A program made the translations under genes and the position numbers. Positions 1 through 25,597 of a stretch of 39,398 bases of DNA are shown here, piece by piece; within the stretch, counting starts at the first letter, position 1; each line of letters starts with the position of its first letter. Under the pieces are notes generated by a model. It was not told the DNA's origin, did no database searches, and worked only from the letters and a program-made list of their open reading frames with translations. Source of the DNA: Jimgerdemannia flammicorona (taxonomy: Eukaryota); assembly GCA_003990765.1 (NCBI GenBank), contig RBNJ01000144.1:1-39398 (forward strand), given 5' to 3'.

Positions 1-164
1 CGTTTCTCCTAAGTGTACCAGACAATTGACTTTTGCTTTGGTTTGTATTCAACTTTCGGACTGAGGTTTTATTCACTCTCGCCACTGGGGTAATTTATAC
101 AAGTTGGTTGCTATCTGGTTGCTATGTGGCTAATTATACATTTGCTATCTTTGGTAATGTTTGG

Positions 165-278
165 GTGTGTCCTCTGGGTACAGGTGTGTCCACAGGACAT
201 GAGTGTGTCCGCAGGACATGAGTGTGTCCGCAGGACATGAGTGTGTCCGCAGGACATGAGTGTGTCCGCAGGACACAG
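165..278. repeat. 19-bp tandem repeat (GTGTGTCCGCAGGACATGA), ~6 units, each with an internal TGTCC-nnn-GGACA palindrome
   Basis: Units start at 165, 184, 203, 222, 241 and 260; no spacers. Confidence 0.9.
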
Positions 279-442
279 GTAAACAATCCTGATCTGGTGT
301 CTTGGCTAATTATAAGTGTGGCGGGCATGAGTAACTATGATACACTGGAAGTCACATCATGCTGAGTAAGTATGCTAATTGTTTGTGTCATCCGGCTAAG
401 TTATAATTCAGGTGGTACGTTTTTGGTCTGTTACAATAGATA

Positions 443-607
443 GATTGTATACAGGTAGGTTTTGTATAGACAAGTTGCATACAGATGGGTTGTATACAGA
501 CAGATTGTATGCAGATGGGTTGTATGCAGATAGGTTGCATATAGCCAGGTTGTATATAGCTGGGTTGTATGCAGCCAGGTTGTATACAGATAGGTTGTGT
601 ATAGACA
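443..607. repeat. 15-bp degenerate tandem repeat (consensus GGTTGTATACAGATA), ~11 units
   Basis: Direct inspection; it generates the spurious 5-aa-periodic ORFs at 388-788. Confidence 0.85.
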
Positions 608-784
608 GGTTTGTTTTGTTTACTTGTAATGTAGCAGGAAAGAAAAAAAATAAAGAAAAAGAACAAAAGAAAGAACAAAAGAAGAGAGAGAATAAAAGAA
701 AGAGTAATGTTACTAAAGTATAGTAGGAAAAAAAAATAGAGTAAAAAAAGAAAAAAAAGAAAAAGAGTGATATCACTAAAGATT

Positions 785-926
785 TCATATAATCAATCTG
801 GATGGATCAATCTAGATAGATTGATCCAGATCAGATCACAAGACCAATCTGAGTTGATTCAAATCCATTACATGACAAATCTGAATTGAATCTCATTCAA
901 ATCAATTTCATCCATTCAGAGCACTA
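785..926. mobile_element. Right end of a hAT-like MITE/transposon, CpG-eroded
   Basis: Ends in ATCCATTCAGAGCACTA, matching the TIR ATCCGTTCGGAACCATA at 29941-29957 and the end of 19778-19895; subterminal ATC/GAT-rich motifs; no left TIR seen. Confidence 0.6.
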
Positions 927-999
927 GACTCTGAGATTTATATAAATATTATATAGTAATATTACAGAATGTATAGTTCAATAAAAAGGAAAATAATAA

Positions 1000-1765
1000 A
1001 AAGATTCATATGGATAGAATAGGATTTGTAGTCTATGAGCTAGCAGATAGCTGGGATTAGTAAGTAGGACTGAGTGGTGATTTAGTCTTAGAGTGCAGAG
1101 GTATAGTGATGGCTTCCTCTAAATTATGAATAAAGTAGTAGTATTTATTATAGAGAAATATCATATTAAACTTTCAGTCAAGTCACTTGGTAGATGGTAG
1201 GTACTTTGATTGTGAGGAGTATTATAGTATAGAGTAGGAAGAGAGCTTTATATAGTTGCCTGAATATTGGTTAGAGGAGTACCAGATTCTTAGAGACTTC
1301 TGGGTAGCAGTTGGAAATTACTGACAGTAGTGAGGAGAGAGGATACTGAGAGGAGTTGGTGAGATGATTTAAAGAAGATATTAGTAGATTGTATTGATAA
1401 TAAGTAACTTATAGTTGGGTAAGTCTTGATAGTATGGGTGGAGCTAACTGGATACTAGTTGTATATATTTGAGGAGAGAAGACAAATGAGTTTGAAAGAG
1501 TATTTGATAAGGTGAGAAGGGTTATTGAAAGAAGTTATATCTGACTAGTGGGTGGAGTAGAGTCTCCAAGAAGATCATTATAAATATCTTGTAAAGAGAA
1601 TTTATAGATAGAGTGGGGAGAGGGTTGTGATGGTTAATGGTCAGATGGCTTTTAATTGTGAAGAGATAGGGAGTAGTCTCTAGAGGGGGATTGGTTTGGG
1701 GAGGAATTATTATATTATATTAGAGATAGATGAGTTTGATAATAAAGAAGTCTGAGAGACTATTA
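1000..1765 (+). mobile_element. Degenerate 3' fragment of a Tx1/L1-type LINE
   Basis: 1150-1310 resembles the ORF2 C-terminal Zn-finger region of the copy at ~22480-22630; ends AATAAAGA-AGTCTGAGAGACTAT (1741-1763), the family 3' motif; 5' limit approximate. Confidence 0.65.
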
Positions 1766-3132
1766 ATGAAAGATTCATATAGATATACTCATTCTAATCT
1801 CTACTTTAATATCTATATCTAAGCAAATATAGTAATTGGTACTAATTTCTCCAATAAAGTGAAATTATTTTCAACTATTATATATATCTGAGCTAGAGTT
1901 GTCTAAGTTAAGAATAATAGAGATTATACCTTTCTCTGATATTAATTACATTATGCAAACTTCCAGCAATACTTTCAACACATTTTTTGGAAAAAAGATA
2001 AGAGTAATATATTAACTAGTAAGAGTTCTGATGAGCATACTGAATCAGACAGATCTGGGGCCTTTGGGTAGTAGTATATTGAGAGAGGATATGATCTAAG
2101 AATAGGCTCCTTTGGTAGAGTGAATGGTCAGGAGGGGTCTGGAGGACAGTTAGGATCTGGAGAGAGTAGGGATAAGTTGGGACCCATGAGCTTTACTGAT
2201 AAGATAAAGGAAGGAGGCTAGCTGGTAAGCACTAGGGCTAGTAGAGCTAGTAGTAGAGACAGACTGAGTTAGAAGAGAGCTGGAGGTCCTCTGCTTGGGG
2301 AAGCAGACATAGGGGCTAGAGAGGCTATGACTAGAGAAAGAGAGATAACTACTAATGGTAATATAACTGAAGATCTGAAAAAAAAAAATCCAAATGTGAT
2401 AGCTGATAGTAGAGCTGAGCAGATAGGCTACAAAAGGCAAGAGGATCTAGCAGATAGTGTAATAGATCTAGTGGTTGTACCATTATTCAAGAAGTTGATT
2501 TTAGAATTTACTATTATATTATGCTTCTGAGAGCTGGTAGTGACTATAAAGATGGTTCTGAGCCTAATTTCAAAACAGATAACTAGAGTGACTTTGGTGA
2601 AGTTCTTATAAGAACTAGAGGGGATTGAGGTGAGCTTTGAGAAGATGGAGTCACTGGAGAAGACATTGAAGACTGAGTTAGTACTTAGAGAGATAGTGGT
2701 ATCAATAGTATACTACTTGAGATAGGACCCTAGGATGGTTTAGCTTCTGATAAAAAGAGTGCCTATGGAGATAAGGTAGAGAGTAGTGGAGATGAAGGTA
2801 GAGTATAGTGATATTATGAATATTGGATTCCAGGTCTGAGAGAAGACTTCTTTCTGAACTAGAGATATTGATATCAGACTCAGACTGACTAGAAGAGAGG
2901 CTATCAGGAAGGTGCAGGACTGGCCATCAGTGATGATATGAGATACTTTCATTTATAAGATAATAAGAGTAAAGAGGAGTAAGGAGAAGGAGAAGGATCT
3001 GCTGGAGACACTGGAGGACTTGAGTGGGATAGTAGAATATCAAGTAGAGGTATGGAGGAAGTATGTAGCTTTGATCTACTTAGAGATAGTAGATGAGAAG
3101 TAGATTCAGATAGACAAGATACTGTGGGAGAA

Positions 3133-3599
3133 TATAACAGTTCTAGTTTCTTTAAGAGGAAGCAACTAAGTTCTGAAAGTTCTAGTAGATCTAAAGTAGC
3201 TTAAAGAGATACTCATAGGTTCAAGTATTCTCAAAGGAATTCTAAGAGAAAATATTCTGAGCTTTATTCAAGTAGAGAACAAGGATATTTATATAGAATC
3301 TAAAAGAAAGATCCAGAAAGGATCTTAGAAAAGAAGAGAAAAGCTAAGAAATAAGTTCTTAGTAAAGATAACCAATAATATTCTACAATGTTCCAAAGGT
3401 TCTATAACTAGCCAAGATATGAAACTTGGTACTAAGAAAAGACAAGAATGTTTTAGTAAAGTCTTAGTACCAGGAGAAGATTTCAAGATATTTAGAAAAT
3501 ACTGAAATATAGTAGAATATGTAAAAAAAAAGACAAAAAAAGATTAGAAAAAGATATGAAAAAGTACTAAGACTAATATATAACTATAAAATTATTATA
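3133..3599 (-). repeat. 3' LTR (467 bp)
   Basis: Direct repeat of 14561-14932; termini read TATAAC...ATTATA, consistent with mutated TGTAAC...GTTACA. Confidence 0.93.
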
Positions 3600-3615
3600 T
3601 CCCTCCCTTCTTAAG
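3600..3615 (-). other. Polypurine tract (AAGAAGGGAGGGA on the minus strand)
   Basis: TCCCTCCCTTCTT abuts the 3' LTR. Confidence 0.85.
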
Positions 3616-3949
3616 AACCAATGTACTTTTTGAGTTCTTAGATAACATAAGGCTAAATATACTTAACCAAAATTTTTCAAACTTGTATCAATATATTGGT
3701 AAGAATTGACCATCCTCATATAGGGCAGAGGGTCTATTATTAGACTAATCAACTGAAAGGAGTTCAAACCTAGCTAGTAGTTTCATTTTGGTAGATTTCT
3801 TATTCACTAAATATTCTGCTAGTTCTAGGGTCCCAAAGTAAACTTCTGATATATAAGGTACTGGTTATTACTATAGATCATCAATAATCTAAGAAAGTCA
3901 CTATAGAGATTGGGCAATATATTTTGCCTCAAAGTTTTGAACCAGATCT

Positions 3950-5140
3950 TAAGAGTTCTTGAGATTGATCAGTAGTTTTCAGATAGCATCATATTTAGAG
4001 TAGCCCATTCACTTAATCAGATATTCAGGATAATAGTAGTAGATTCACTTATTAAGAATTTTCTCAACTTTATACTCAATATAGTCTTTAATAAGCACAG
4101 GGGCAGATAGCTTGAAAACTCAACCAGAGTAGAGTAGTGACTAGTTCCAGGTCTTGAGATATGATATATAAAAGACTAGATATACTCTCATGATTTCAGG
4201 TAGCTTGAGATGGTAGGAGAATATAGAGACTTATTTAGTAATCTCAAAGAATCTAATGTATCTTGAGGTTCTCAGTAGATAGTAAGCTAATAATGTAGGT
4301 AATATTATAGTACTTCTTATCAGCATACTTAGCTTGATACTGTTGGGTCTTTTGGAGATTCATGATAGTAATCTTGAGTAGTTTGTCTATTTTGTCTATA
4401 AGGTTTCTGGCAGTAGAGACTTATATTTAACTGTTTTTCTTAAAAGGAACTAGACTTGTAGGGGTCTTGGGATCTTGACCATAGAGTAGCTGAAAGGGAA
4501 AAAGACTAGTAGATAATTGGACAGTATTGTTATATATAAATTCTATATAAGTCAAGTAATAATCTCAATCATCTTGCTCATAAGAAATATAGTTTCTGAG
4601 CATTTGTTCTAGAGTTCTGTTTATGTACTCAGTTTGTTCATCTGTTTATAAGTAAAAGACAATAGATATATTTAATTAGATTCTCAGAGTCTTGAAGAGA
4701 GTTTGCCAAAAGTGACTAGTAAACTTGGGATCACAATTACTGACAATTACTTATAGTAGACCATAGTGATAGAAGATGAACTTAAAGAAGATTCTTACAA
4801 TCTTAGGTGTAGTAGTATTAGTAATAGTTAGTTCAGCAACCATAGTCTTGGTCAGATAGTTAACAAATATGATGATAACATCAGTACTAGATTGGATTTA
4901 TAGTAGTTAAGTTATAAAGTCCATTATAACTTACTTAAATTTCTTAGTCAGAATTGGCAGTAGTTATAGCAAACTAGCTAGTACTTAATTGGTAAACTTG
5001 TTGTACTGATAGAGATTATAGTTAGCAATATAGTTCTTGATTTTCTTGGCTATACTTGGCTAATAGTAGTGATGCTAGATATTCTTAACTGTTTTCTCAA
5101 TTTCAAGATAACTAATAAGAGGGGAGTCATAATATTCTTA
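3950..5140 (-). pseudogene. Gypsy integrase plus C-terminal chromodomain
   Basis: Minus-strand relics: HHCC-region YDSPLISYLEIEKT (~5095-5133), TDEQTE (QTDGQTE, ~4628-4650), VYLVFYISYLKTW (HPVFHVS, ~4147-4185), chromodomain IEYKVEKILN...EYLIK*MGY (~3995-4080). Confidence 0.9.
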
Positions 5141-5454
5141 TAGTATCTTATAGTAGAGATTCATGTTGTCAGGTAGGTAGACTTTGTCTTGATGATAGAT
5201 CAAGTTGTCTTTAATAGTATATATGTATATTCTTAAGCTCATTTGAGAAAACTCTAGTGATGATAGTGTCTTCTGGTCACCCTGGACTCCTTTTGCTCGA
5301 ACCATTCAGAGCAAGCTAAGCCACATGGACATCTTTTCGCGACAAGCAACACGTTTTCAAGTTTTTCCATTGTCTATTCTGGTGTACAAGGTGCGGCAGG
5401 AGTCTAGCTACAGCATACAACAAGTCTCATCTAATTTGGTGGAGTATTCGTCAG

Positions 5455-7299
5455 ATGGCAACCCAGGGTTCATCAAGCTCTGAGCGTTTGGAGAGGAGGA
5501 GGCCTGGTCTGGGTCTCCCCAAGAGCTTCGCAGTGACAGTTGGAGCAGGTGTAGGGGCAGGAGGAGTAGGTGGTCAGGGGGGGCAGGCTGGCATTGTGAG
5601 TTGGCACACAGTGATGGGGGGCAGGAGGGCGGCTACTAGGCCCATGGGGGTAGGGCAGGGGGGGTGTAGTATTGACAGGGGTAGGGGTCAGGTGACCAGC
5701 CAGGTGACGGGTCAGGTGACTGGTCAGGTGCCTGCTAGGGGCCAGGGGTCCGGAAGTGGTGTGGCTGGGACTGGTATTCCTGGGGCTGAGCTGGTGGCTG
5801 GGGTGACTGCTGGAGTATCGGAGAACAAGAAGAAGGTGACGATGATAGCTGGATCTGGTGAACTGGTGGTGCATCCCTTCTTCCACAAATCGGTGTCGAC
5901 GTGGGCCATATCAGCGAATTTTTTGGGGCTGGGGATGTCTGCGAGGGAGGTCTTGCAGCTAGTTGGAGAGGAGATTGCAGAGGCGGAGTCGCTGAAGTTC
6001 ATCCCATCAGCTGAGGCAGTCAAGATAGGATTCATTGAGGAGGAGGAGATGGTGAAGGCCTTGGAGAAAGGGCTGGTCATCAAGAACATCAAGGTTGGCA
6101 TGGCGAGGTGCCTGAGGTGGGACCCATGGGCAGTACAACTGGTGATTGAAGGGCTGCCAACATTGGGGAGACAGGAGACTAAAGGAATGGTGGCGGAGGC
6201 ACTAGGGGCATTTGGCGAGATGGTTGACTTCGGGTTCATGTTTTGGGAGGGGACCAAGTTGAGAAATGGCAACTGCGAGGTGATGGTGAGGCTGGAAGGC
6301 AAGGAGGCCATGGGGCAAGGGAGGGACTGGCCAGAAGTAGTTCGCATCAGAGGGTAGGAGTACAAGGTGTAGAGAAGGAAGGGCTTGGAACAGGAGGAGG
6401 AGGAATTGCTAGTCGCCCTAGAGGAGAGAGAGGCTGCAAAGGAATTGCGGAAGAGGAAATGGGAGGAGTTTGCCAAGAATTGGATCTGGATCCTGACTGA
6501 TGGGAAGAGGAAGAGGTGGTGAAGGGCAAACTGGGAGCATCTGCAGACAGTCCTCCAGGGCTCGAAAAGGGAGGAGGAGGAAAAAGCAGAGATGGCCAAA
6601 AGTCAAATGGAAGAGGTGGAGATGGCTGAGGTGTCCTTCTCACAACTGGGGGGTGTGGAGGATTCTACTCATGTACCAGTGACAGGGAAGTGGGTGGATA
6701 AGGAGGAGGCAACCACTGGGGGCTTTGAGGAGGTTGTCAAGGTGGTACCAGAGACCCAGTTGGAGGATGTCCACATGGCGGGAGTGGCAAATGTGCATTG
6801 GGAATGCCCAGAGGCAGGCGAAGTGGTTCGGCTGGAGAAGGGCACTGAGGAGGACGATCTGGTGGATGTGGCTTCCAATGTGTTGGCAGATAGAAAGATG
6901 CTGCAGGAGCTGAGTAGGACTCCAAGGCCTGCCACCCTGGGGCCCATAGTGATGATGGCAGATGACTGGTATCAGGCAGTGCTCGAGAAACTCGTGGAGG
7001 AGGATATCAAGAAAGTGGATGTGTTTAATGGATCGCAGGAGGCCTGAGAAGGGTTTCTCAATGTGGCATTGCAGGGGCCAAAGTTGGTGACAGCAATAGT
7101 GGTGGCACTTCTGGATGATGAAGGATATGAGGTTGATGAGGACCATATGGCTGAAATCAGGAAGGTGGCATCAGAGCGAGTGGTGGTCTTTTGCAATGAG
7201 ATGAATGGAGCACACATCTGGAGGGGTATCTGCAAGGAACGGAAGGCTATTATTTGCGGTAGGGCTGAGAAGGTGGTGGCGAATCTGGTGGAAATTTAA
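5455..7299 (+). pseudogene. LINE ORF1 (Gly-rich N-terminus, probable RRM-like core, acidic C-terminal region); 4 in-frame stops
   Basis: ORF pieces 5455, 6592 and 7063 share one frame; internal stops at 6355, 6370, 6520 and 7045. Confidence 0.85.
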
Positions 7300-7311
7300 A
7301 CATTTACATTC

Positions 7312-10300
7312 ATGATGATGAACAGTCTACGTATATTATCACTAAATGTCAATGGTTTGTGTGATGGAGTGAAGCGAAGGCATTTGTTTCAGTGGCTGAA
7401 GAACAGGAGATATGACTTGATATTTTTGCAGGACATTCGGGCCTATGGGGAGCAAGATTATAGGGAGTGGAGCAAGGAATGGTATGGTAGCACAGGGTAG
7501 AATGAGCAGGTGGAAATTCTGGTTGACTTGGAGAGAGGAGAGCTGAAGGAGGTCGAGAGATATGGTAATCGATTGGTCTGGGGGAGACTGAAAGGAGGAG
7601 CAGGTGATGGGCTTGTAGTTGGCTCAGTGTATCTGCCAGCAGTTGGCAGAGAGTGAAACCAATGGGTGGAAGGTTGGCTGGATTGGGAAGGCCGAGAGGA
7701 GATTGAGCTGTACATTTTGGGAGGGGACTTCAACATGGTTTGTGACAGGACATTAGATAGGTCTGATGGTGGAATCGGCGTGGCAGTTTCTACAGGGCTC
7801 TCATGATGGCTTCAAGTGGAGAAGGAAATGGGATTGGTTGATGGAGTATGACAACATCAAGGTGAGAAGTCAGGGCCATTTACTAGGTGGCATCCAGTTG
7901 GTGAGGATTTGGTTGGTACAAGGATTGATTGGATTCTGGTGGCAGAATGCTGGAGTAATGTTTTGGATTCAACTGAGGTACAGTGGTGTCCCTGGTCAGA
8001 TCACTGGGGTGTAGAGGTGTGTGGGAGATTCCAGGCGGCCAGTAGTGGTGGAGGCAGATGGCGACTTAATGTGGCATTACTCAAGAGATAGGTGGAGTGG
8101 GACCAGTTTGTCAAAATTGCAAGACAGGAAGTGGCACGGTGGAAGAATAGTGGCCAGTCGATAGCACAGTAGTGGGGAAAATTTAAACATCTGGCAGGTG
8201 CATTCTGGCATGATGTAGGAGAGGTAGCAGGAAGGGAGCAGAAGGATAGAGAGAGGAGAGCAGAGCAGGGGCTACGCTGGTGGTTGAGACTTTTAGAGGG
8301 AGGGAACCCCTCCAGGGAACGGCGCTCCCTGTTGATCAAGGAGGTGGCGGAGTTGCAGACAGATTTGAAGGCTGCAGAAGATAGGGTGGTGGATGGGTTG
8401 CTAGCAAGATTGTGAGCCAAGTGGTTGGAAGAAGGAGAGCGACCCACCAAATACTTGTCCGGCATCTTGAAGGCAAGAAGGGTGAGGCACAGCTGGGCTT
8501 CCGTGTTGCAGGAGGATGGCACTGAGGTGACTGATATCACAGACATGCTTGGGGAGATCTCTGGTCATTGGTGCACCCTATGGCAGGATGATGGAGGGCT
8601 GGCGGAGGGAGAGGCAGCACTGGAGGACAATACCAATTTGGTCAGCAGCTGGCCAGTGGTGGCGGAGCTGGCAATTGGTGGTGCAGTAATGGGTAGGGTG
8701 TCCCTTGAAGAAGTGTTAGAGGTTCTGAGGAAAGCGCAGACTGGTTCATCACCAGGGGAGGATGGACTGCCTTGGGAGTTCTGGAAGGAATTTCAAACTG
8801 AGCTTGGGGAATGGCTTGTAGAAATGGCAAACTTTACACTGGGGGAAGGCTGCTGGATTGGCAATGGCTCCTTAGGGCTAGTCTCTCTGCTCTATAAGGA
8901 GAAAGGGGACAGACGTGTGTGGCAGAACTGGAGACCCATCATGTTACTGAATGTGGATAGGAAGTTGGTCTCCAAGATTCTGGCAGGGAGAATGCAACAA
9001 TGGATTGGCCAATTAGTGGGAGATGAACAGCAAGGGTTTGTGAAGGAGAGGCAGATTAGAGACAGTACTGCATGGGTGCAAAATGTTTTGGAAGGTTGTC
9101 GAAGCCGGCAAGTAGATGGAAGGATAGTGTTTTTGGACCAGGAGAAGGCTTACGACAGGGTGCGGTGGAACTACTTGGAGGCAGTTCTATGGAAGGCTGG
9201 GTTTGATATGGGGGAGGCTCGAAAGCTGATGGGTCTGGTGTGAGGTTGCCAGGCTGCAGTGTTGATGAATGGGTAGAGTGGCCCAGAGTTCCTCTTAGGG
9301 CGAGGTGTGCCGCAGGGAGATCCTCTCTCACCCCTGCTTTACATTTTATTATTGGAGCCCTTGTTGGCATGGTTGAAGGGGAGGCTTACTGGGTTGAAAA
9401 TGGGGGATATGGTCTGGAAGATAGGGGCCTTTGCGGACGATATGGTAGTAGGGTTAGGCAGTGTGGAAGATGTGGTGAGCTTACAGGAAGGGGTAGGACA
9501 GTATGAGATGCTGGTAAGAGTGAAGCTGAACTGGGGCAAGTGCGAGACTATGGAGCTTGGAGCTGGATTGGGGGAGCATGGACATTTTGGACAATTGGTT
9601 AGACTGGGGGAAGCAGTTAGATATCTGGGCATCTGGTTCTCGGTTTATGGGATGGTGCTGCCAAAAGAGTGGTAGTGTGGAATGATACAGAAGTGGGAGA
9701 ATGTCTTGGTGGGCTGGTCTGGGAGGGGCTTCTCCTTGGTTGGGAGGATTGTAGTTTTGAATGTATATTGGTTACCGAAGCTGTGGTACTTGGGGTACCA
9801 CCTGGACTTTCCAGGATGGGTGGTTCAAAAGCTGAAGAAGGTGGTCGAAGGATGGCTGTGGCAGGGAAGAAGATCACAGATTAGCTGGGAAATTATAGTG
9901 ATAGTGAAGGCAGATGGAGGTCTGGGGTTGGTGGACTTCAGAAGGTGGCTGAAGGTACTTAGAGGCTGGTGGGGTTGTCAAATGGCAGAATTAGGAGGGG
10001 AGGGCTGGAGCAAACTGGCTATGGACAACTGGAAAGTTCAGTTCTGCCCCCGGAGTGAGGTTCGGAAGGACATACGAGGTTTGCTCCAGGTTGGAAGGGT
10101 TAGCAGGTTATGTTATAGGGGATTTTGGTGGGGTATTGTAGAAGCTTGGCTGGCAATGGGTCTCATGGGCCCAGAACCTGGCAAAGAAGAGGAGAACCCA
10201 GATCGACATTGGTGGCAATTTGGTGTGATTCGTATTAGCGGCCACCCGTTGGTGGAATACTCTTTGGCTGGGGCGATGGAGTGGATCCGGATGGGTCCAC

Positions 10301-14492: not shown

Positions 14493-14545
14493 GTAATGAG
14501 TTGTGACTGATTTCTGAATTTGTATAAGATTTCTTAATAAGGCAT

Positions 14546-14560
14546 ACTACTGCTACTAAG
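14546..14560 (-). other. Putative primer-binding site (tRNA-iMet type)
   Basis: Minus strand reads CTTAGTAGCAG just inside the 5' LTR, equal to TGGTAGCAG with one G>A. Confidence 0.5.
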
Positions 14561-14932: not shown

Positions 14933-15667
14933 GAGAAGACTCAGGAGAGAAAGAGGCAGAGAGACTTGCTGACTAGAATGAAGACATTACTGGTGGCTGA
15001 ATTGGAGGAGTTCAGGAGAAGTACTAGAGAGTATCTGGACTACTAGTAGTATAGAGAGATGAGTGGAGGGTGTGGGAGTGAGTAAGGAAATAAGAGATCA
15101 GCAGCTCTATATTGATGGTATACTTGAAGTATGAGAGAAGAAGGTGAGTAAAGTGAGGGCTATAGCTTCTGAGTGGAGAATTGGTGAAGATATCAAGATG
15201 AAGAGCACTCACAGGGTTCAGTTTAGAGTTCCTGATATAGTGAAAGGGGGCCAGATAGTTGGCATCAAGGTGGATGAGTTGGTCAATATTCAAAAGAAGA
15301 CATATGATAAGTCTGCAAGTACTGGAGCTGATACTACAATATTGAATACAGAGTAGCCTAATACTCTTGAGGGGAAAAATATTGGCAACTTATGATAGAT
15401 ATGCATAATAATGTACAATCTGGTGACAGAGAAGTTGGGTGAGGTAGACTTGAGAGTAATCAGTGAAGAGTACTGAGAGAGAGTCCTGTGAGAGAATAGT
15501 ATAGTGGAAGCTCTGAAGGCTAAGATGTTGGCAGTATATCTGAAGAAGGAGAGTTATGAGATAGATACTGCAAGGAAGGCAGAATTAGCTACAGCTACTG
15601 GAAAATAGACTATCTTTTGGTGGAAGAAGTAAGATAGATTACTGCTTTAGTGAGAGACATATCTGGT

Positions 15668-16170
15668 GGGATGTTTTGGAGTTATATTGCAGACTGGCTA
15701 GGGCTGCAAGCCCTGGAGGGAGGGAAAGGGGGAAGATGGGGAGAGCTCTGCCAAAGGCTGGTAGGAGGGGTTGGGGATGAATGGCTGACCCTCCGTTGGG
15801 CTTTGGCCATATAGATTGGGATGGCTGGACATTGGGTACATATATTTGAGGGAGGCCAGGGGGTTAGGATTGGGGATAGGGTGGTGTATTGGGAATGGTT
15901 ATTACTGGATATTTTGAATGATTAGTGGTGAGGGTGGAGACCAGGTGGGGGGAGTCACAGGGGTTTGGTATAGGGTATCTCCTGAAAAAGTGGCAGAAGG
16001 GTTCAGGTGGTAGGCAACTGGGTTATCCTCTGGTAGGGGAGAACAGAGAGTGGAGGAGTGGATCTGAGGGATATCAGTTGAGGGGATGGAGTAATATTGT
16101 ATTACTATTATTATAGATAGCAATAATAAAGGGAAGTCTAAGTGACTTTAAAAAAAAAAAAAAAAAAAAA
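15668..16170 (+). mobile_element. 5'-truncated LINE insertion (~500 bp)
   Basis: 16-bp TSD GAGAGA(C/T)ATATCTGGT at 15652-15667 and 16171-16186; AATAAA, AGTCTAAGTGACT, A21 tail. Confidence 0.9.
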
Positions 16171-17778
16171 GAGAGATATATCTGGTATATAAGAAAGAGA
16201 TAGAGGAGAAGGATAATGAGGTATTGATTGAGCTTCTGATTGGACTAGAGACTAAGAGGGTTGAGGATGAGGAGGTTATTACAGAATGTGGGCTAGACTT
16301 GGCCCAGAAGAAGATAAGTGTAGAGCTTTGAAGAGGCTGAGACTCTTATACTATTTTTCTTTATAAATAGTACAATTAATATTTTCTCATAAATGTGAAT
16401 AATCTGAGGAACTCCAGAAGATGTCAGAATATTTTTACTTGGCTGAAGGGACTGGATGTAGATCTTTTTCTATTGCAGAATATATAGTAGGAGAAGAACT
16501 TAGATAGACAGAAGTGGATGAGAGAGTGGAGTAGTATAGCTGTTTAGAGAAATAAGATTAGAATTCTGGTATGATGTAGCAAAGGTGAACTTTATAAAGT
16601 TAGAGGCTGGGGTGACTGATTGGTCTGAAGGGAGTGGCAAAGACCAGAGTAGGAGGCTGTTATCATTGACATATATTACTATTTGACAGATGAGGCAATC
16701 AAATTATATAGTTGGATAGACTTCTTGATAGTAGTGTGCTGGCTGAGGCAGGGGTTGACATACTTGAGAGAGACTTCAATATGGTCAGAGATATGGTGTT
16801 GGATAGGACTGATTAGGAGAGAAGTATTAGAAACTGCAGTAGAGATCTGAAGCTTTAGGAGAAAGTAGAGAGGCTCAGCTCTTTGATAAATGCTAAAAGG
16901 GTAATATGGGGTGACTACTGAATTTATATTCATTGGGTGAATGGGCTTGAAATGAGAATTGACTGGATGCTGACAGCTGATTGCTGGGAGTTAGGTATTT
17001 GGAAGAATTTGGAGATCAAGTAGTACTTATAATCAGACCATTGGAGTTTATTAGAGCATGGTTGATTTGGAGAGAGTGAGAATGAACCTAGATATTAGTG
17101 ACTCAATTCCTTCTTACTGGCTGAGAAGGGGTTGTAGAATACTTAGATTAGAGATATTGGGTTATAGATAGATTATTAGAACCATAAGAGACTCTTAATA
17201 GAGTGAGAATAAAAGAAGCTACTAGGGTATACTATATGTATCTTTAATCTTGAAGTATAAATAGTAGTCAAGAATTAGATTGATTCAGATTAATACTATA
17301 CTACTCCAACCTAAACATCACTTTACTATTAAGTAAAAATCTACTATATAAACTTAATAATTAGATTAGAATAAAAATAGTTAGACTCACTTCTACAGGC
17401 TTCAGAACTAGAAATCCTTTTTGAAAGACCAAGTCAGTACTATAATATCCAGACTCACTAAGATAGTAATTTCAAGAAAGACCTAAGAGAGTACCAATCT
17501 GACAACAGTTAATAAGAAACTGTAGGTCTAGAAATATTTCAACCAGTTACTTCTAGTAACTAAAAGAGCCAAGAACTCCAGATATCTGAATAAGATCAGC
17601 TATCAGTTTAGATATTTAAACTACTCAATCTTATAAATATATTTGATCTTCTTTCTAGGAACCAAGTAACCTCTAGTCATACAGTATCTCAACTATATTA
17701 AGTAGAACCCTCATCAGAAGAGTCAACTCTTACAGTACTACTACTAATAACTATAATAACTAATAGTCAGATCTAAGT

Positions 17779-20700
17779 AATCACATTTTTCTCTATTATA
17801 ATTTACATTATACAAACTTTTAAAATACTTTCTATATAGTTTTTGGAGAAAAAATATTAATATTATATTAATATATATAAGTTCTGATAGATATGCTAAG
17901 TTGGGTAGATCTGGAGTCTTTAGCTAGAAGAGGTTACAGTCTGGAGATGGGCTTTTTCAGTAGTAATAGTGAAAGAGAGAATCTAGTAGGAGTCAACTAT
18001 CTAGCTTAGATGATGGGAGGTAGTGACTGATGAGCTTTGCTAATAAGATAAAGGTGGGTGGTTGGTCTGAAGATACTTGAGATAGTAAGCTTAGGAAGAA
18101 GAGTAAGACAAGTACTGAGAGGGCTGAAGGGTCAATGCAAGATGAGGTAGGTATAGAGACTGAGGGAGATATTGCTGGAGGCTGGAGTATGATTATTATG
18201 ATAGAGTTAGGGTAGATCTAAAAAAAAATCCAGATGTAACTGCTGATGATAAGGCTGAGCAGACAGAGTATACAGAAAAAGGAGACTTAGTAGATAGTGT
18301 GATGAGCCTAGTAGTAACTTCATTACTCAAGAAGTTAATTTCAGAATTTATAATTACTTTATATTTCTAGAGGCTAATAGTGATAACCAAGATAATCTTG
18401 GGTCTGATTATGAACCAGATAACTAAAACAGCCTTGGTGAAGTTTCTGTGAGAGTTGAAGAGAGTTGAGATAAGGTTTGAGAAGATAGGACTATTGGAGG
18501 AGGTCTTGAGAACTTGGTTATTAGTTAGTAAAGTGGTGGTACTAATGACTTAGTATCTGAGGTGAGATTCTAGAGTAGTATAACTTCTAGTAAAGAGATA
18601 TCTATAGTAATAATTATTGAGATGAGGAAGAGGGTAGAGGAGATAATGAGAGAGTTTTGCAAAATAGTAGATATTGAATTTTAGATATAGGAGGGGACTT
18701 TGTTCTGGACAAGAGATATAGATATATAGCTCTGGCTTATAGGAAAGGAGATTACCAGAAAGACTAGAGACTAACCTTCAGTACTGATATAGGGTGCCTT
18801 TATTTGTAAAGTAATGAAGATGAAAGAAAGTAAAAAAGAGGAGAAGAATTTACTAAAGGCTCCGGAGAAACTCAGTGGAGAAGTAGAGTGTCAAGTAGAG
18901 ATGTGGTGAGCTTACATAGTATTGACACATTTAGAGATAGTGAATGGCAAGCAGATTCATATAGACAAGATGATGTAAGAGAAGACTTAGGAGAAGAAGA
19001 GGCAGAGGGATCTACTGATGAGTTTGAAGGAGAGGACAACAACTGGAGCTGAGGAGAGTTGTAAAGACAAGTAATTGGGCTAGAGATAGATTGAGAGAGA
19101 AGAAGAAGAATATGATAGAGAGTAAGGAGGCAAGGAGTCAGTAGCTCTATAATAATAATATGCTCAAGGTCTAAAAGAAGGAGAAGAATTATATAGTGAG
19201 ACCCAATGCTCAGAAAAGGAGAGTTATAGATATAGAGATAAGAGATATATATAGGTTCTAGTTTGGAGTACCAGATATAGCTAAGAGAGAACAGATAATT
19301 AGAGTGAAGGAAGATGAGCTATATGATATTCTCAAGAAGGAGTGAGATGAGTCTACTAGTACTGATACTGATACTATACTACTGATAGAGGAGAGGTTTA
19401 CAACTTTAGGTAAAAAATATATTGATGATATTTGATAGATGAGTATAATGATAAATAAGTTGGCTGCTGAGAAGCTGGGAGAGGTGAATTTACATATTGT
19501 CAGTAAGAAGTTCTAGATAAGGGTATTGAGAAGTAATGGGGTAGTAGAGAAGCTGAAGGCTGAAGTTTTGGCTGTATTTTTAGAAGAGAAAGATTATGAG
19601 ATAGATGTGATAAGAGAGATTGAATTAGCAGTAGTTGCTGGAGAGTATGCTGCTTTCTGATAAAAGCAGAGATATAGATTACAGCTCTGGCAGATAGTAT
19701 ATGAGAAGTATAAGGAGGAGATAAAGGCTAAGAATAATAAAGAGATTACTGAGATTGGATACTAAAAAGATTGAGGATAGTACTCTTAATGAGTTTAAAT
19801 TGGACCTTTGATTCAATTTAAATTCGAAATTTAATCATATTAAAAATCCCCAATTTAATTTAATTCAAATTAATTTCATTTATTTAGGAGTACTGGTTGA
19901 GGAGAAGAAAGTAATTGCAGAGCATAGTCTAGACTTGGCTTGAGAGAAGATGAGTATAGAACTATAAAGGAGATAGAACTGCAATATAACAAATTTTTTT
20001 TATAAACAGTATAACTAACATTTTCTCATTAAATATGAATGGTCTGTAGGGCTCTGTGAGATATTAAAATATTTTTGCTTAACTAAAGGGTTTGAAGGCA
20101 GATCTTTTTCTACTGTAGAATATATATATACTATAAGAAGAAATTAGATAGACAGGTATAGAATTCTGGTATGGAGAAGTAAGAGAGAACTATATAAGAT
20201 TGAGAGATGAAGGAACTACTTGATATAGAGAGAGTGGTAAAGGCCAGAGTGGAATCCAGTAGTAGTAGATTCTTATTATTACTAGGCAGTTAGGAGTAAC
20301 TAAGTAGAGTAACTAGAGAAACTTCATGAGTATGGTATACTTGCTGAAGCTGGTATAGATATACTGAGTAGAAACTTTAATATAGTGTAGAATATACTAT
20401 TAGACAGGACTGATAGAGAGTGATATATAGTAGACTATAGTGGCAGTCTGAATGTTTGAGAGGAAGTAAAGTATCTAAGTTTATTGATAGATACAAGTAG
20501 AATGATATAGAGTGACCAGAGAGTTTATACTCATTAGGTGAATGAACTTGGAATAAGAATTGACTAGATGCTGACTGCTGACTACTAGAGGTTAGATGTC
20601 TGAGTGACTTTGGAGATAGAGTAGTATCTAGATAGTGATTGGAATTCTGAGAATCTTGGACCAGTTGAGCTCAAGGTAGGGACAGTTATAGAGTGAGGAG

Positions 20701-23137
20701 AAAGGTGGAGAAGATGTCCTGGACATTGAACAACATCTGGAGGATTGATATCCAGACCCAGCAGAGGGTCTTGGGGATCTTAGAGTTCCTTAGAACTGCT
20801 TCTAGAGAGGATGGACTATCTTAAGATTTCTGGAAGAAGATGACTAGTGTAGAGTTAGCATTAGAGGAGATGGTGGGGATGTATAATGAGGTTATTGGAT
20901 CAGGAGAGTAGATTGAAGAACAGTATCTAGGACTGATAGCTCTACTGTATAAAAATAAGAGGAGACAAAAGAAGTGGAAGAACTGGAGACTGATCATGCT
21001 TTTAGATATAGATCACAAGCTGGTTATGAAGATATTGATGGCTAGGCTACAAAGAGTGGTGCAGCAAGTACTGGGGATGAAACAGAAGAGTTTTGTCAGA
21101 GAATAATTGATAAGAGATAGGACTGCTTGGATATATAGAGTTATTGAAAGAGCATGGACTACAGGGGTAGATGGTCAGCTAGTTTTTCTGAACCAAGAGA
21201 AGGTATATGATAGGGTCTAGTAAGTTTGGCTAGTAGGGGTATTGAAGCAGATGAGAGTTCCCCCAGAGTTCAGATGATCATTAATAGGGCTGTTGGAGGG
21301 AAATTGGGTAGTAATATTAGTAAATAGTCATAGGGGAGTTTTATTCCCCTGGACAGAGGAGTGCCACAAGGGGATTCACTGTTACCAATTCTCTATACTC
21401 TCTCTCTGGAGCCTCTGTTGGATATGATTTAGTATAAGATAGGGGGGTTAAATATTCTTGGAGTGAATTGGAAGGTAGGAGCCTTTGCTGATAATATGTA
21501 GTTAGGCTGGACTCTATAGAAAACATGGCTACACTGAAGAAAGCTGTAAAATGATATGAGGGATGCTCTAGTACTAAGCTTAACTGGTACAAGTATAAGA
21601 CACTAGTGTTAAGAGGAGAAATAGTAGAGAGAGATATGATTGAAACAGTTATTTTAATAAAAGAGGCAGTATGTTATCTGGGAATTTACTTCTCAGTATA
21701 TAGATCTCTACTGCCTTGAGAATGGTAGGAGTGGTAGTTAGTGGAGAGAGAGAATACTCTTCTGAGGTGGGGTGACTGATATATCTCTCTAGTAGAGAGA
21801 GTGATGGTACTGAATATATACTGGCTACCCAAGTTGTGATATCTAGAGTACTACTTGGATTTCTCAGTATAGATGATCAAGAGGCTGTTGAAGATGGTCA
21901 GAACCTAGATATAAGTAGGACAGAGGAGTCAGATAGGCTTGGAGATAATAACATAGCCAGTGGATCAGAGAGGGCTAGGTCTTATAGACTTTATTAAGTG
22001 TTTATATTACTTGAGAGTATAGTGGTTGAAGCAAGCTAGTGAGTTGAGAGGCCATAAGTAGATACTCCTTATATAGAGAATATGGGAGGTGTGGTTCTCT
22101 CTCTGAGGCATATTTAGTGATCTGCTCTCTCTAGTGGCTCTGGAGGAGAGCCAGAAGATGTACTTTAAAGACTTCTAGTGGGGAGTGGTTGATAGTATAC
22201 AGTGAATTAGCATCAGATGAAGACAATGAGAGAGAGGCTGTCTGGAGATCCAGAATGTAGAGGTGGAACTGTCTTCTGCTAGGGGGTATACTGGTGAATA
22301 ACTTCAGCTTAGAGGATAGTATAGAATATCTTCAAGAGCATGGGCAGGATCTGTGACCTATAGCATAGTAAGGAGTGGAGATCAGTGAGAAGTCAGACTG
22401 GAATGAAGTATGGTTATAGAGCAAGCAGATGGTATGATAGATCTCCCTTAAGTTCTGAATAGTATAGTGGAGACTTTTGTAGTAACATATAATATTGAAC
22501 TATTGATCAGGATATTTGGTGAATGGGGGAGTATTGGAGTGTGAAGAGTACTTCAATATCAGATAGAGAGGAGTAGTGCAAACTCTGAAGTATTAATTGG
22601 AGGAGTATAAGGTAATGTGGAACTTTTGGAAGATAATTGAGAGTCTTTTGGGAGTCTGTCCACTAGGGCTTATTGTGGGAGAGAGGTAGAGAGATTTATA
22701 GAGAAGGCTGGTGAGAGAGGTTGGGAATGAGTAGTTAACCATTAGGTGGATACTAGTTATTTGAATTGGACTTACTAGATATTAGCTATATGTATTTGAA
22801 GATAGATAGTAGTTGGCACTTAGACTATAAATTGCAAGATGAGAGTAATTAGGGTTGGATCTATTGAATGGCTGATAAAAGAGTGGGGACCTAGAGGGGG
22901 GCCCCATAAGAGGCTGGTAGAAAAATCTGCAAGCAGAGTAGAGAGAGAATTGGAGTAGCTGAGTGGGTTGTAACTTTCTGGAGAGATAGAGAGAGAGAGA
23001 GAGAGGAGAGAGAGGGGTGGGGGGGTGAAGCCCCTCAGGAGATTGGATGAGAGAGGGGCCTGTATTAGTATAACATAGATTGGTAATAAGGATAATAAAG
23101 TAGAAGTCCAAGTGACTATAAAAAAAAAAAAAAAAAA
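17779..23137 (+). mobile_element. Degenerate near-full-length LINE copy B2 (internal deletion near 20630)
   Basis: RT relics KNWRLIMLL (~20977), FLNQEKVYDRV (~21185), GVPQGDSLLP (~21358), AFADN (~21481), YWLPKL (~21819); 3' motif plus A18 (23120-23137); no TSD found. Confidence 0.9.
19778..19895. mobile_element. 118-bp hAT-like MITE inserted in LINE B2
   Basis: 8-bp TSD ATTGAGGA/GTTGAGGA (19770-19777, 19896-19903); termini TAGTACTC...GAGTACTG; absent at the homologous site of copy B1 (~16260). Confidence 0.85.
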
Positions 23138-23990
23138 TGTGAAATTTATAAGTAATTTTGGACAAGTACTCTTCAAAAGTCTAGGAGTACAACTTAAGAT
23201 ATCTACTATATATCATTCAGACAGATAGCTAAACAGGAAGAATCAACTAAACTCTAAAGTAAATGCTTAATATCAACTATAGCTATAAGCAGAATAATTA
23301 GAATAAAAACTAATCTTAACTAAATTTATATATAATAATAGTATGTATACTAAAATAACTTCATTCTATCTGAACTATAGATAATACTCTCAGATCTCTA
23401 TAACTATTATATAAGCTATAATATGTATCAGCTATATAAGAAATTACCAATACTATATAAGATAATATCTAGAAAGTACATGATACTCTTATAGAAGTAT
23501 AAAGAATATAAGCTATATATACTGATTAAAATAGAAAAGAAGTTACTTATAAAAAAGATAAATATATATTACTCAATATATAATATCTGATCCTAGATAA
23601 TATTAAGACTAAAAAAGAAACACAGACTCTACTATATTAGACAATTTAAGATCTTAGAAATATATAGTTCTATTGTATATAAGTTGGACCTTTCAGTAAT
23701 CTTAGAGAGAATTTATCTGGTATTTTATATATTCTAACTTCTGCTATATACTCTAAATATCTTTGAAGGAAGAACTATACTACTCTTAGATCTGATTATT
23801 ATTAATCAGAAATTAGAATACAAAGTAATTATATCTTAAATTATAAGAATTGATAATTTAGACAAGCTACTAAGTTCACTCAGTACTATCTTGTAAAATG
23901 AAAAAAATTATCTTAAATATAATATTACTTGAAAAAAAGAATATAATCTCTTATCAAATATAGAAGAAGTAGTAATCTGATAAATATATA
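23138..23990 (+). mobile_element. Relic of a second chromovirus: integrase core to chromodomain
   Basis: KFISNFGQVLFKSLGVQLKISTIYH..TD.*T..INQTL-like; IRQFKILE (GPF region, ~23636); YKLDL...IYLVFYI; YYLVK*K (~23884). Confidence 0.75.
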
Positions 23991-25103
23991 GTATAAAGGA
24001 AATTCCAAAGAAATTTCTAAAGAATAGTTATATCTTTGATAAAATAAGTATAAATATTCTTAAACATTATATAAATAACTCTCTATAATATGAGTAATTA
24101 GCAATAATACTGAGAGTAAACTAAGAATAAGATTACTATAGTCATTCTTATAGTTATTAAATACCAATAGACCTCTATTGAACCACTCTCTATCAATATA
24201 TAAATCTCTAAAGACCTATATCTAAATAAAGCCCAATAATATCTTAAAGAAATACAATCTTCCAAGTCTTTCACTACTAATAAGAACTAAAGAAATACTA
24301 TAAAATAGACTGAATTATCTGCTAATAGATAACTCTCAGTGAAGCTAAGCAATTATCCTACCTGTTTATCAATAACTATGTATATCTATATTATTACAAA
24401 AAGACTATATGTCCTTTTCTATATCTAGTCTCAAGTCCTTGACCACCTTTATGAAATATTTTCTAAAAATATTATCAACTTAACTGATGAGTATTAGAGT
24501 AATATTACCTTTCAAGTAGTTTAGTATACAGTCCTTTAGTTTGACAAATATCTAAAGTTTAGTATAGAATTAAATAAGTAAATTCAGATAAAGAAAGAAA
24601 GGATATAATAGTTTATTATATAACAACAAGCCTCTGGAAATTATAACAGAATTTCTAATGAAATTTACAATGAAAGTTCCAATAAAAATTATAATATAAT
24701 TTCTAACATAGTAGTTATAGATAATATATATAGTATAACTATATATAGATATATCTAATATATTATATTTAGCCATAGTTCTAAATCTGTATAAATATTC
24801 TCTATACTGAGTATATTGTAATCTTAGCTCTATTTTCTCTCTCTTAAGAATAAAGAAGTATTAATAATTCTAAGTCTGATCAACTTAGAATATATATATA
24901 AGCACAGTACCTATCTAACATAAGAACTTGAAAGTAATACTTAGACTATACCTCCATAACAGACAGAAGGAACTTAGCACTTTCTCACAGAACTCAGAAC
25001 TTAGAGCTAATAGTCATCTCTGATTATCTACAATATATTAATTCTATCAGTATATAGTTTTATTATAGTATAATTATTTAAAATTTTTCAGAAGTATTTA
25101 TAT

Positions 25104-25178
25104 AAGTTGTTTAAACTTAAGTTGTTTAAACTTAAGTTGCTCAAACTTGGGTTACTCAAACTTGAGTTGTTTAAACTT
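25104..25178. repeat. 15-bp quasi-palindromic tandem repeat (AAGTTGTTTAAACTT) x5
   Basis: Direct inspection. Confidence 0.85.
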
Positions 25179-25597
25179 GAGATATATGTGAAATTCAAAG
25201 TTAACTTATAAAAGAAGATGAGTTCATAGATAATATTAATACAATCTTAGTATTATTAAAGTTGTTAAATTTTTAATAAACTGAAAATTCAGAAGATGCT
25301 AATTAAATAGACTTATTGCTATCTCAATTTTGGTATATATTATATAAGTATACTATATATCTTGCAGATATATTAAGTTAAGCCTGAGATAGATTTGTAT
25401 TTTAGACTGCAGTGTGAGTAAGCAAACTTCATATTTGGAGGTAGAAGTATGCAATATTTTGAATTCGTGAATTTTAATAGATATCAGGTTTAATTGTGAT
25501 GTGTCTCCTTATGGCATACATTGTGCCATTATGTACATGCATGGTTAATGATAGTTATTCGGAAATCCCATGGTACTCCCTGCGACGATATTCGATA

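Follow-up and report, generated by a model that had tools for sequence, protein, structure and literature searches.

Canonical RIP, known from Neurospora and Leptosphaeria, is a RID-dependent process that changes CpA to TpA; it is triggered by homology and mutates duplicates of a few hundred base pairs (bp) with ~80% identity or more, genes included. Affected DNA is recognized by TpA/ApT > 0.89, a substrate index, (CpA+TpG)/(ApC+GpT), < 1.03 and a composite index > 0. Transposon-confined patterns of the type described here are already known from several fungi. Tuber transposons are reported to be methylated coextensively with the element, with CpG to non-CpG methylation at ~3:1, and highly methylated elements to show more C>T (PMC4165359), and a signature of CpG plus CpA mutation in transposons has already been published for Tuber melanosporum (PMC4352252). 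RIP-like TpCpG hypermutation has been reported in Pucciniomycotina (Horns et al. 2012, PMC3318451), and methylated repeats of vertebrates and plants undergo CpG decay. Here we compare with these systems a window of 39,398 nucleotides, the whole stretch of DNA that was analysed, for which an original prediction had proposed a transition-dominated, multi-context mutation process directed at transposons.

A retrotransposon nest beside genes

The left 25 kb of the window is a retrotransposon nest, in which a Ty3/gypsy element has split an old LINE and has in turn been interrupted by a younger LINE; to the right of this nested trio lie another old LINE and a probable gypsy remnant. The features are as follows.

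419–1930, unstranded: CpG-free, AT-rich sequence, not assigned to an element type, containing a 15-bp tandem array
1931–3132, plus strand: left part of old LINE copy O1, cut by the gypsy insertion
3128–3132 (left) and 14933–14937 (right), unstranded: 5-bp gypsy target-site duplication, GAGAA
3133–3599, minus strand: 3′ LTR (467 bp) of the Ty3/gypsy element, with TA...TA ends
3600–3612, minus strand: gypsy polypurine tract, AAGAAGGGAGGGA, immediately upstream of the 3′ LTR
4150–5239, minus strand: gypsy integrase region, heavily mutated (Integrase_H2C2, 5158–4997; SH3_Tf2-1, 4266–4150)
5275–11096, plus strand: younger L1-clade LINE (LINE Y), sitting in the gypsy element between RNase H and integrase
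11244–12565, minus strand: gypsy RT and RNase H
12840–13476, minus strand: gypsy aspartic protease (13067–12840) and inserted dUTPase domain (13476–13095)
13795–14283, minus strand: gypsy gag (Ty3_capsid)
14561–14932, minus strand: gypsy 5′ LTR, 372 bp, termini TA...TA
14938–17700, plus strand: right part of O1, right end approximate, with an internal A-run at 16150–16170
17701–23137, plus strand: old full-length LINE copy O2, start approximate (RVT_1, ~20970–21270; poly(A), 23120–23137)
23138–25465, plus strand: most decayed stretch, resembling a gypsy integrase-to-LTR remnant, GC 23%
25466–39398, unstranded: unaffected control, with genes, tandem arrays, three paralogues (33.5–38.7 kb) and a P450 relic (31457–31829)

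The gypsy element has the features expected of Ty3/gypsy: a target duplication flanks it, and its LTRs enclose a polypurine tract and genes in the order gag–PR–RT–RNase H–integrase, with an extra dUTPase domain between gag and PR. LINE Y is bounded by a 13-bp target duplication (5262–5274 and 11097–11109), ends in a poly(A) tail (11076–11096), has three internal stops in ORF2 and is multi-copy, as judged from the depth of metagenome contigs. The LINEs were assigned to the L1 clade, and their homologues carry zf-RVT. The left part of O1 aligns with 17788–18983 at 67–72% identity, and the most decayed stretch has weak homology to the first gypsy element (score 330 vs ~200 for shuffles). Damaged motifs named in the original prediction were located in these elements, all three with the codons it implied: YLND (TAT CTT AAT GAT, 11988–11977, minus strand), YLVFYI (23714–23731, plus strand) and GFGSTD, derived from GFGSTG, at 13109–13092 on the minus strand, in the dUTPase domain and not in the protease.

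CpG loss ends with the transposons

CpG loss is coextensive with the transposons, and genes and flanks are spared. No CpG was observed in 419–5274 (116 expected) and three in 11097–25465 (367 expected), giving 3 vs 483 expected for the old elements together. LINE Y holds 93 vs 321 expected (observed/expected (o/e) 0.29), and the genic part from 25466 holds 743 vs 727 (o/e 1.02). Near absence of CpG from the older elements had been predicted and was found, although not over the predicted 1–25400: the affected zone is 419–25465, the nearest CpGs outside it lie at positions 418 and 25466, and bases 1–418 keep ten CpGs. The right-hand edge is sharp (~200 bp, at 25.4–25.6 kb), and the loss ends ~200 bp or less from the transposon edge, with little leakage beyond.

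Every 1-kb bin from 27 to 39 kb has a CpG o/e of 0.84–1.23, in line with the prediction that the duplicated genes and tandem arrays there keep their CpGs. The three gene paralogues, which have ~600 bp in common and lie 1.4–3.3 kb apart, show a CpG o/e of 1.06–1.27 and a transition to transversion ratio (Ts:Tv) of 1.8–2.1 in aligned blocks (~1 over whole alignments); no hypermutation was found in these three linked copies, whose present-day identity is roughly 80–88% and may have been different when the process was active. Transitions are not more frequent than transversions in the genic tandem arrays, and CpG o/e is 1.07 in ORF-poor DNA next door and 1.16 in the P450 relic. Because duplicated genes 8–13 kb away are untouched, the process probably follows transposon or heterochromatin identity and not mere duplication. 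This is the direction that the prediction had given, and the ~200-bp edges and the spared ORF-poor DNA and P450 relic agree with it.

Plain age, in which old neutral DNA drifts to AT under ordinary mutation bias with no targeting, would account for one feature of the nest, as the degree of decay tracks the nesting order of the elements. Against it, CpG is wholly erased and not just reduced, and the ORF-poor DNA and pseudogene fragment keep theirs. This reading is already disfavoured, and we consider it very improbable.

Transitions in the LTR pair

Over 372 aligned positions (97 gap columns excluded), the two gypsy LTRs are identical at 329 and differ by 40 transitions (21 C/T, 19 A/G) and 3 transversions, so that the predicted transition-dominated divergence holds for the full pair. 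The nearby gene paralogues differ by 159 transitions and 83 transversions in well-aligned blocks (Fisher p = 1.2e-4), and this ~2:1 ratio among neighbours again speaks against plain age. Since the LTR transitions comprise both C/T and A/G differences, both strands were hit, after integration. The changes are spread evenly over the two copies (20 and 19), and no strand-coordinated runs were detected in either LTR (runs test, P = 0.48 and 0.80).

Among the 39 transition differences with readable context, 17 are CA-versus-TA or TG-versus-TA with an unchanged neighbour, another 17 lie at CpT or CpC, and the TG-versus-CA pattern expected of a former CpG occurs at only 2 sites (4 columns); as predicted, the excess is not CpG-only. 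When sites are classed by the context of the copy that keeps C, 22/33 CpA, 7/15 CpC and 10/70 CpT sites differ. CpG contexts account for a minority of the LTR transitions; the others rank CpA > CpC > CpT, with CpA>TpA the commonest recognizable class. As 22 CpA sites differ and 11 are kept, we estimate that about half of the ancestral CpA sites changed per LTR copy, against transversions of ~0.4% per copy. LTR elements generally have TG...CA ends; both LTRs here end in TA...TA, as predicted, and the predicted conversion from TG...CA would follow from that general rule, TA...TA being what is observed.

Direction and context of change

Gypsy coding sequence repeats the LTR ranking, the fraction changed being 0.52–0.55 at CpA, 0.27–0.59 at CpC and 0.07–0.34 at CpT; in the two old LINE copies it is 0.69, 0.73 and 0.51, respectively. 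The old LINE pair differs by 483 transitions and 158 transversions, counted over the 1908/3463 alignment columns that passed the quality filter. In these LINEs the 5′ neighbour has no effect (fractions 0.51–0.57) and there is no CHG excess (CHG 0.45 vs CHH 0.56, with CTG the lowest class).

Comparison of gypsy codons with homologue P0121 (761 aligned codons, 474 different, 295 explicable by one base change) gave 156 GC>AT transitions vs 13 AT>GC (12:1), which bears out the predicted directional excess; five other homologues gave ratios from 8:1 to 1.2:1. For O2 against P0005 the counts are 39.5 GC>AT vs 3.3 AT>GC, and for LINE Y, used as a control against five homologues, 22–58 vs 11–54 (ratio 0.9–2.0, with four of five at 0.9–1.3). 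Transversions are likewise skewed to GC>AT (47 vs 14), so that there is AT drift of a general kind or else the homologue differs in composition; this is the kind of skew that plain age would leave. The transition excess is family-wide: across 3100–23099, assembled soil-metagenome contigs of the same families differed by transition at 1433 places and by transversion at 272 in run X1 (740 vs 166 in run X2).

On the gypsy coding strand, G>A outnumbers C>T in the P0121 comparison (107 vs 49) and is ~1.8 times as frequent in the context tally, an asymmetry that may come from context or ascertainment. It is also what editing of retroelement cDNA by an AID/APOBEC-like deaminase before integration might leave, and the gypsy element encodes a dUTPase, which in retroviruses has been connected with the avoidance of uracil (PMC2864245). 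Such editing is largely refuted by the symmetric post-integration differences between LTRs that were identical at integration. The lack of a 5′-neighbour preference also counts against it, as does the 15-mer array (438–617), which is not a retroelement but is transition-rich too (24 transitions and 8 transversions among its units); we find this explanation scarcely credible.

RIP indices and a graded series

Canonical RIP indices are weakly positive in the old elements: TpA/ApT is 1.05–1.20 in all of them, the substrate index 0.78–1.16 and the composite index −0.03 to 0.43, with three of four at 0.14–0.43 and 23138–25465 at 0.43. Strongly RIP'd DNA has far higher composite indices. The TpA/ApT values and the composite values of those three elements also suit an active RIP-like process.

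An unlikely explanation, though one with several points in its favour, is that true RIP has acted, or else a premeiotic RIP-like enzyme (RID/Masc1 or DIM-2 type) that prefers CpG and CpA; in that case an ascomycete with ordinary RIP would be the probable host. It would account for the 12:1 codon bias, the 13:1 Ts:Tv of the LTRs, CpA>TpA as their commonest class and the sign of the indices. Tuber, besides Polyporales, is reported to have dUTPase-bearing gypsy elements (PMC2864245), a 2025 kingdom-wide screen reports RIP-like repeat signatures in Ascomycota only (PMC12543289) and RIP at CG has been described for Uncinocarpus reesii (PMC4165359). Opposed to it are the three paralogues, which show no homology-triggered mutation, the multi-copy LINE Y with its composite index of −0.95, the absence of strand runs in the LTRs, the little leakage past the element edge and the low composite indices of the old elements. 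L1-clade LINEs with zf-RVT homologues are also not the usual Pezizomycotina type, which counts against RIP.

LINE Y (GC 52%) has TpG at 1.22, CpA at 1.57 and TpA at 0.58 alongside its CpG o/e of 0.29, and this depletion of CpG alone with a TpG/CpA surplus is the classic signature of CpG methylation decay. Its NCG trinucleotides have o/e values of 0.18 (ACG), 0.28 (CCG), 0.30 (GCG) and 0.41 (TCG). A graded series runs along the nesting order, in which the youngest element is depleted of CpG only and older ones have lost CpA, CpC and CpT too. The CpG deficit of LINE Y may be inherited from its family and not acquired at the present site.

Proposed mechanism

On balance, the pattern is probably the result of transposon-wide 5mC followed by deamination, targeted by transposon or heterochromatin identity. 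A DNMT-type system would methylate the whole transposon block, CpG above all and non-CpG less, a step that we infer purely from the DNA letters; the 5-methylcytosines would then deaminate over time, following the 'MIP-like methylation plus deamination' picture from T. melanosporum. What the DNA itself shows is C>T change on both strands after insertion, much faster than background, with a rate set by the 3′ base of the C: CpG is fully erased, CpA comes next, CpC equals CpA or falls below it, and CpT is last; the 5′ base has no effect. With about half of CpA changed per LTR copy and transversions at ~0.4%, non-CpG methylation would have to stay dense over time for passive decay to suffice, and a review describes Basidiomycota methylation as strongly CpG-biased (PMC13297926), which counts against 5mC decay. 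Both an active RIP-like enzyme and dense 5mC with deamination fit the data, and we favour the second.

The predicted multi-context cytosine-targeting defence stands in part. The multiple contexts, the action on both strands and the 3′-neighbour dependence were found, but the data do not single out an active enzyme: passive 5mC deamination fits too, the RIP indices are only weakly positive, LINE Y carries the CpG>TpG/CpA decay signature and Tuber offers a precedent (PMC4352252). A new, RID-independent defence against transposons or heterochromatin, run by an early-diverging fungus (Mucoromycota) or by another non-Dikarya soil fungus or little-studied eukaryote, seems improbable to us. Its deamination would act in all dinucleotide contexts, with CpG hit much harder than CpA, CpC at most as hard as CpA and CpT least; CpG would be wholly erased and duplicated genes ignored. 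The multi-context, transposon-confined spectrum would suit it, and L1-like LINEs are reportedly present in Mucor (10.1101/706580). Protein searches gave no close or informatively named match and the atlas taxa were Streptophyta, Chordata and Rotifera, which speaks neither for nor against the predicted Mucoromycota host. A genic GC of 46% and CpG decay of the methylation type are not specific to Mucoromycota, and the spectrum requires no new enzyme. According to the same review, 6mA and not 5mC predominates in early-diverging fungi (PMC13297926). If true, this reading would place a RIP-like genome defence outside Ascomycota, where the 2025 screen reports none (PMC12543289).

Comparison with known systems

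The locus resembles canonical RIP in that C:G>T:A transitions dominate its repeats, TpA is enriched and AT-rich relics remain. It differs in that CpG is the top and most complete target, the indices are weak, gene duplicates are spared, strand runs are absent and the multi-copy LINE Y is unaffected in the CpA class. In its CpG deficit and TpG/CpA surplus, LINE Y matches the decay that methylated repeats undergo in vertebrates and plants, but the old elements also lose CpA, CpC and CpT, and a plant-type CHG signature is absent. With the Pucciniomycotina case the locus shares a CpG-centred spectrum on transposons; unlike there, as that hypermutation is reported (PMC3318451), TCG is not preferred, being the least depleted class in LINE Y, a TpCpG preference was not found among the 5′ neighbours in the old LINEs either, and non-CpG contexts are strongly hit. 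With the reports on T. melanosporum the locus shares a transposon-restricted, coextensive process with CpG as first target, CpA as second and genes spared (PMC4165359, PMC4352252), and gypsy elements that bear a dUTPase are reported from Tuber too (PMC2864245). Relative to those reports, CpG erasure here is near total and the LINEs have lost CpC as heavily as CpA; methylation was measured in Tuber, and the present case is known from its sequence.

Organization of the retroelement nest

The window divides into a nest of retroelements and a region of genes and tandem arrays, with the following features:

419-25465, retroelement nest
1931-3132 and 14938-~17700, old LINE O1, split by the gypsy insertion
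3133-3599 and 14561-14932, LTRs of a Ty3/gypsy element on the minus strand, flanked on either side by the 5-bp target duplication GAGAA
3600-3612, gypsy polypurine tract
5275-11096 (+), younger LINE Y, flanked by a 13-bp target duplication and ending in a poly(A) tail
~17700-23137, old LINE O2, with a poly(A) tail and 65-72% identity to O1
23138-25465, remnant with GC of 23% and weak gypsy similarity
25466-39398, genes and tandem arrays, with GC of 46% and CpG at expectation
33518-34081, 36873-37361 and 38093-38704 (+), three tandem orphan paralogues

Because the gypsy element lies inside O1 and Y lies inside the gypsy element, the insertions occurred in the order O1, gypsy, Y. Pfam matches gave a gypsy domain order of gag (Ty3_capsid), dUTPase, protease, RT/RNase H and integrase, with the RT and integrase parts confirmed by tblastn using the closest protein homologue, P0121, as query; the integrase part is separated from RNase H by Y. 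In the databases, homologues of Y combine an AP-endonuclease domain with RVT_1 and zf-RVT, an L1-like set. The remnant (23.1-25.5 kb) showed weak homology to the first gypsy element, with no tblastn match at E < 1. Within O1, a 21-base A-run (16150-16170) between two blocks colinear with O2 may be an A-rich linker between ORFs or the junction of two elements. The gypsy dUTPase domain (13095-13476, minus strand; Pfam E = 1.6e-11), between gag and protease, makes a curious pairing, in that an enzyme of uracil avoidance sits inside an element wrecked by cytosine deamination. Gypsy elements with a dUTPase have been reported from Postia, Phanerochaete and Tuber (PMC2864245).

Protein homologues were distant. 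The best matches to the LINE ORF2 had 31-36% identity at 67-100% query coverage, with one further match at 50% identity over 43% of the query, and the LINE RT was placed in a protein atlas only as 'Eukaryota', with Streptophyta, Chordata and Rotifera. The gypsy RT had 13 matches (best, 45% identity), the named ones being from two plants and one fish. Six candidate window proteins had no exact match in the protein collection, a metagenome contig scan returned 21 loci that were all 24-34% identical, and Rfam and tRNA scans found nothing.

Other features of the genic half

The orphan paralogues belong to no Pfam family, and a search with one of them gave no usable protein-atlas match; no start codon is obvious in the middle one (36873-37361). 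On the minus strand, a single-exon ORF (27970-28911; 313 aa) has a signal-peptide-like start, MAKIILSIFAAILAVQAAAAP, followed by QPTYSTQDN-type repeats and ~20 HGYPGHH/HGYPEHH repeats; the 18-bp and 27-bp arrays encode the repeats of this ORF, and its Pfam 'Collagen' match was sub-threshold. Intergenic poly(T) tracts of ~20-60 bases occur at ~26440-26475, 34145-34200 and 38890-38940.

CpG loss is confined to the transposons

CpG was absent from 419-5274 (0 versus 116 expected) and almost so from 11097-25465 (3 versus 367), Y retained 93 of 321 expected, and the sequence from 25466 to the window end had 743 (727 expected). The original prediction had placed the affected span at 1..25400; CpG loss in the old elements bears this out, but the start is slightly too generous, because bases 1-418 retain 10 CpGs. 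Just outside the CpG-free zone, at 181-275, is a 19-bp tandem repeat in which four units have the sequence TCCGCAGG and the first has TCCACAGG, differing by one CpG>CpA change at the edge.

The boundary of the CpG-free zone falls within ~200 bp. Beyond it, ORF-poor DNA next to the nest (CpG observed/expected 1.07), the paralogues (1.06-1.27) and a cytochrome P450 fragment (1.16) are all unaffected, which upholds the proposal that hypermutation is confined to transposons. The P450 fragment (31457-31829, plus strand) covers profile positions 331-416 only, in two frames, and had no matches in a protein search; it is probably what is left of a pseudogene, or else the product of a frameshift in the assembly. 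Transitions were no commoner than transversions in the genic tandem arrays, versus 24 transitions and 8 transversions in a 15-mer array within the CpG-free zone. The window shows a process that tracks transposon identity rather than duplication.

Transition excess between the LTRs

The two LTRs of an element are identical at integration. The present pair is identical at 329 positions and differs by 40 transitions and 3 transversions, with 97 gap columns excluded. As a mutation baseline we used the three paralogue pairs, which gave transition:transversion counts of 47:26, 54:30 and 58:27 (total, 159:83) in well-aligned blocks only (columns 600-1200 of 1597), and ~1:1 over whole alignments. The LTR and baseline counts differed significantly (40:3 versus 159:83; P = 1.2e-4, Fisher's test). 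Plain neutral ageing is excluded, given both this 13:1 ratio and the retention of CpG in non-coding DNA nearby. Editing of cDNA is likewise excluded as the main cause, because the LTR changes are post-integration and symmetric.

Both LTRs start and end in TA, as had been noted; their proposed origin from TG...CA is a reasonable reading of these ends rather than an observation. Three catalytic motifs said to be broken by such transitions (YLDD>YLND, GFGSTG>GFGSTD and HPVFHV>YLVFYI) were found with the codons described, and the C-terminal GFGSTD is part of the gypsy dUTPase domain.

Sequence context and direction of change

Context could be assigned to 39 of the 40 LTR transitions. Only 2 sites (4 columns) had the former-CpG pattern of TG versus CA, whereas 17 differences were CA versus TA or TG versus TA with the neighbour unchanged and 17 were in CpT or CpC context. 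The differing share of sites was 22/33 for CpA, 7/15 for CpC and 10/70 for CpT, an order repeated at gypsy coding positions, and we estimate from the LTR pair that each copy has undergone change at roughly half of its ancestral CpA sites. The O1/O2 pair had 483 transitions and 158 transversions (1908 of 3463 columns kept), with fractions of 0.69 (CpA), 0.73 (CpC) and 0.51 (CpT). These counts from LTRs, gypsy coding positions and the LINE pair establish that the spectrum is multi-context, as first claimed. We saw no effect of the 5' neighbour (an APOBEC-type 5' motif), no preference for CHG over CHH (a plant-type signature) and no TCG-specific loss among the surviving CpGs of Y. Dependence on the 3' but not the 5' neighbour would point to DNMT-type rather than AID/APOBEC-type recognition.

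Direction was determined by aligning homologous proteins to the decayed gypsy element and seeking, for each mismatched codon, a single base change from a codon for the homologue's residue to the present one. Against P0121, 761 codons were aligned and 474 differed, of which 295 were explained by one change and 179, needing more than one, were excluded. There were 156 GC>AT transitions, 13 AT>GC transitions and 125 transversions; for five further homologues the GC>AT:AT>GC ratios were 5.4, 4.3, 2.7, 7.7 and 1.2. The same method gave 39.5 versus 3.3 for O2 against its homologue P0005, and essentially symmetric counts for Y against five homologues (22-58 versus 11-54). The asymmetry therefore belongs to the old elements, not to the method.

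Y was rejected as a DNA outgroup for the old LINEs, its transitions being about equal to transversions at ~45% identity, which places it in a different family. Its sense strand is unusually G-rich and C-poor (G 37.5%, C 14.8%; GC 52% versus 46% in host genes). Single-base codon differences from homologues comprised 24-44 A>G versus 5-14 T>C in the four best-covered comparisons, and 8.2 versus 3.0 in the fifth. Family composition and a sense-strand A>G bias are candidate causes.

Related copies in soil metagenomes

Two soil-metagenome runs have 1776 and 179 contigs that match 3100-23099 at 80-99% likeness. Compared with the window, these contigs show transitions at 1433 places and transversions at 272 in one run, and at 740 and 166 in the other; 98 contigs are ≥99% like the window. 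Summed contig depth peaks in the LTR bins (3100-3766 and 14439-15105) at ~100-117, versus 16-44 in the gypsy interior, a profile suggestive of abundant solo LTRs or of a high copy number of the family in that community. Among the 40 of 2020 places listed, G>A changes private to the window in Y came after G at 4 places, T at 2, A at 1 and C at 2. Most differences among copies of the younger family are therefore non-CpG transitions as well. Of the words of one genic stretch, the two runs contained 5-6%, and no RNA run was among those listed as sharing them.

Mechanism

Two explanations are left, an active RIP-like process and deamination of dense 5mC across the transposons, and we lean modestly towards the second, methylation plus deamination. 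This is favoured by a graded decay series that tracks nesting order, the classic methylation-decay signature of Y (CpG 0.29, TpG 1.22, CpA 1.57, TpA 0.58), the tight boundary and the sparing of gene duplicates. Composite RIP indices are also weak (-0.03 to 0.43), and the LTRs show no strand runs, in a clustering test that is uninformative for old, multi-round change. An active RIP-like process, or RIP proper, draws support from non-CpG change that is very large relative to transversions and from CpA>TpA as the leading recognisable class; we judge RIP proper unlikely. Bolder still, a RIP-like system outside Dikarya seems distinctly improbable. A simple, unfitted two-rate decay, in which CpG changed at least ~10x as fast as CpA, would account for Y as well as for the old elements.

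Comparison with known systems

A kingdom-wide screen found RIP-like repeat signatures in Ascomycota only (PMC12543289). Amselem et al. described transposons of Tuber melanosporum as bearing both CpG and CpA signatures, and those of Microbotryum, Melampsora and Puccinia as bearing CpG signatures alone (PMC4352252), and Horns et al. reported TpCpG in Pucciniomycotina (PMC3318451). In the Tuber methylome, methylation is described as coextensive with transposons, at ~3:1 CpG to non-CpG, and AT enrichment is ascribed to deamination where methylation is heavy (PMC4165359). With these precedents the window pattern is already known in kind. The original prediction stands as an observation, and its interpretation has partial support.

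Novelty would rest on host placement. If the host lies outside Ascomycota, this would be a clean, multi-context cytosine hypermutation confined to transposons, internally dated by three nested insertions and an LTR pair, and would help to decide whether only ascomycetes have RIP-like defences. The locus also shows how far decay can proceed, with complete CpG erasure and, by estimate, about half of ancestral CpA sites altered in each LTR copy. As it stands, it exemplifies, at good resolution, a pattern already in print, of the same kind as the CpG plus CpA transposon signature of T. melanosporum.
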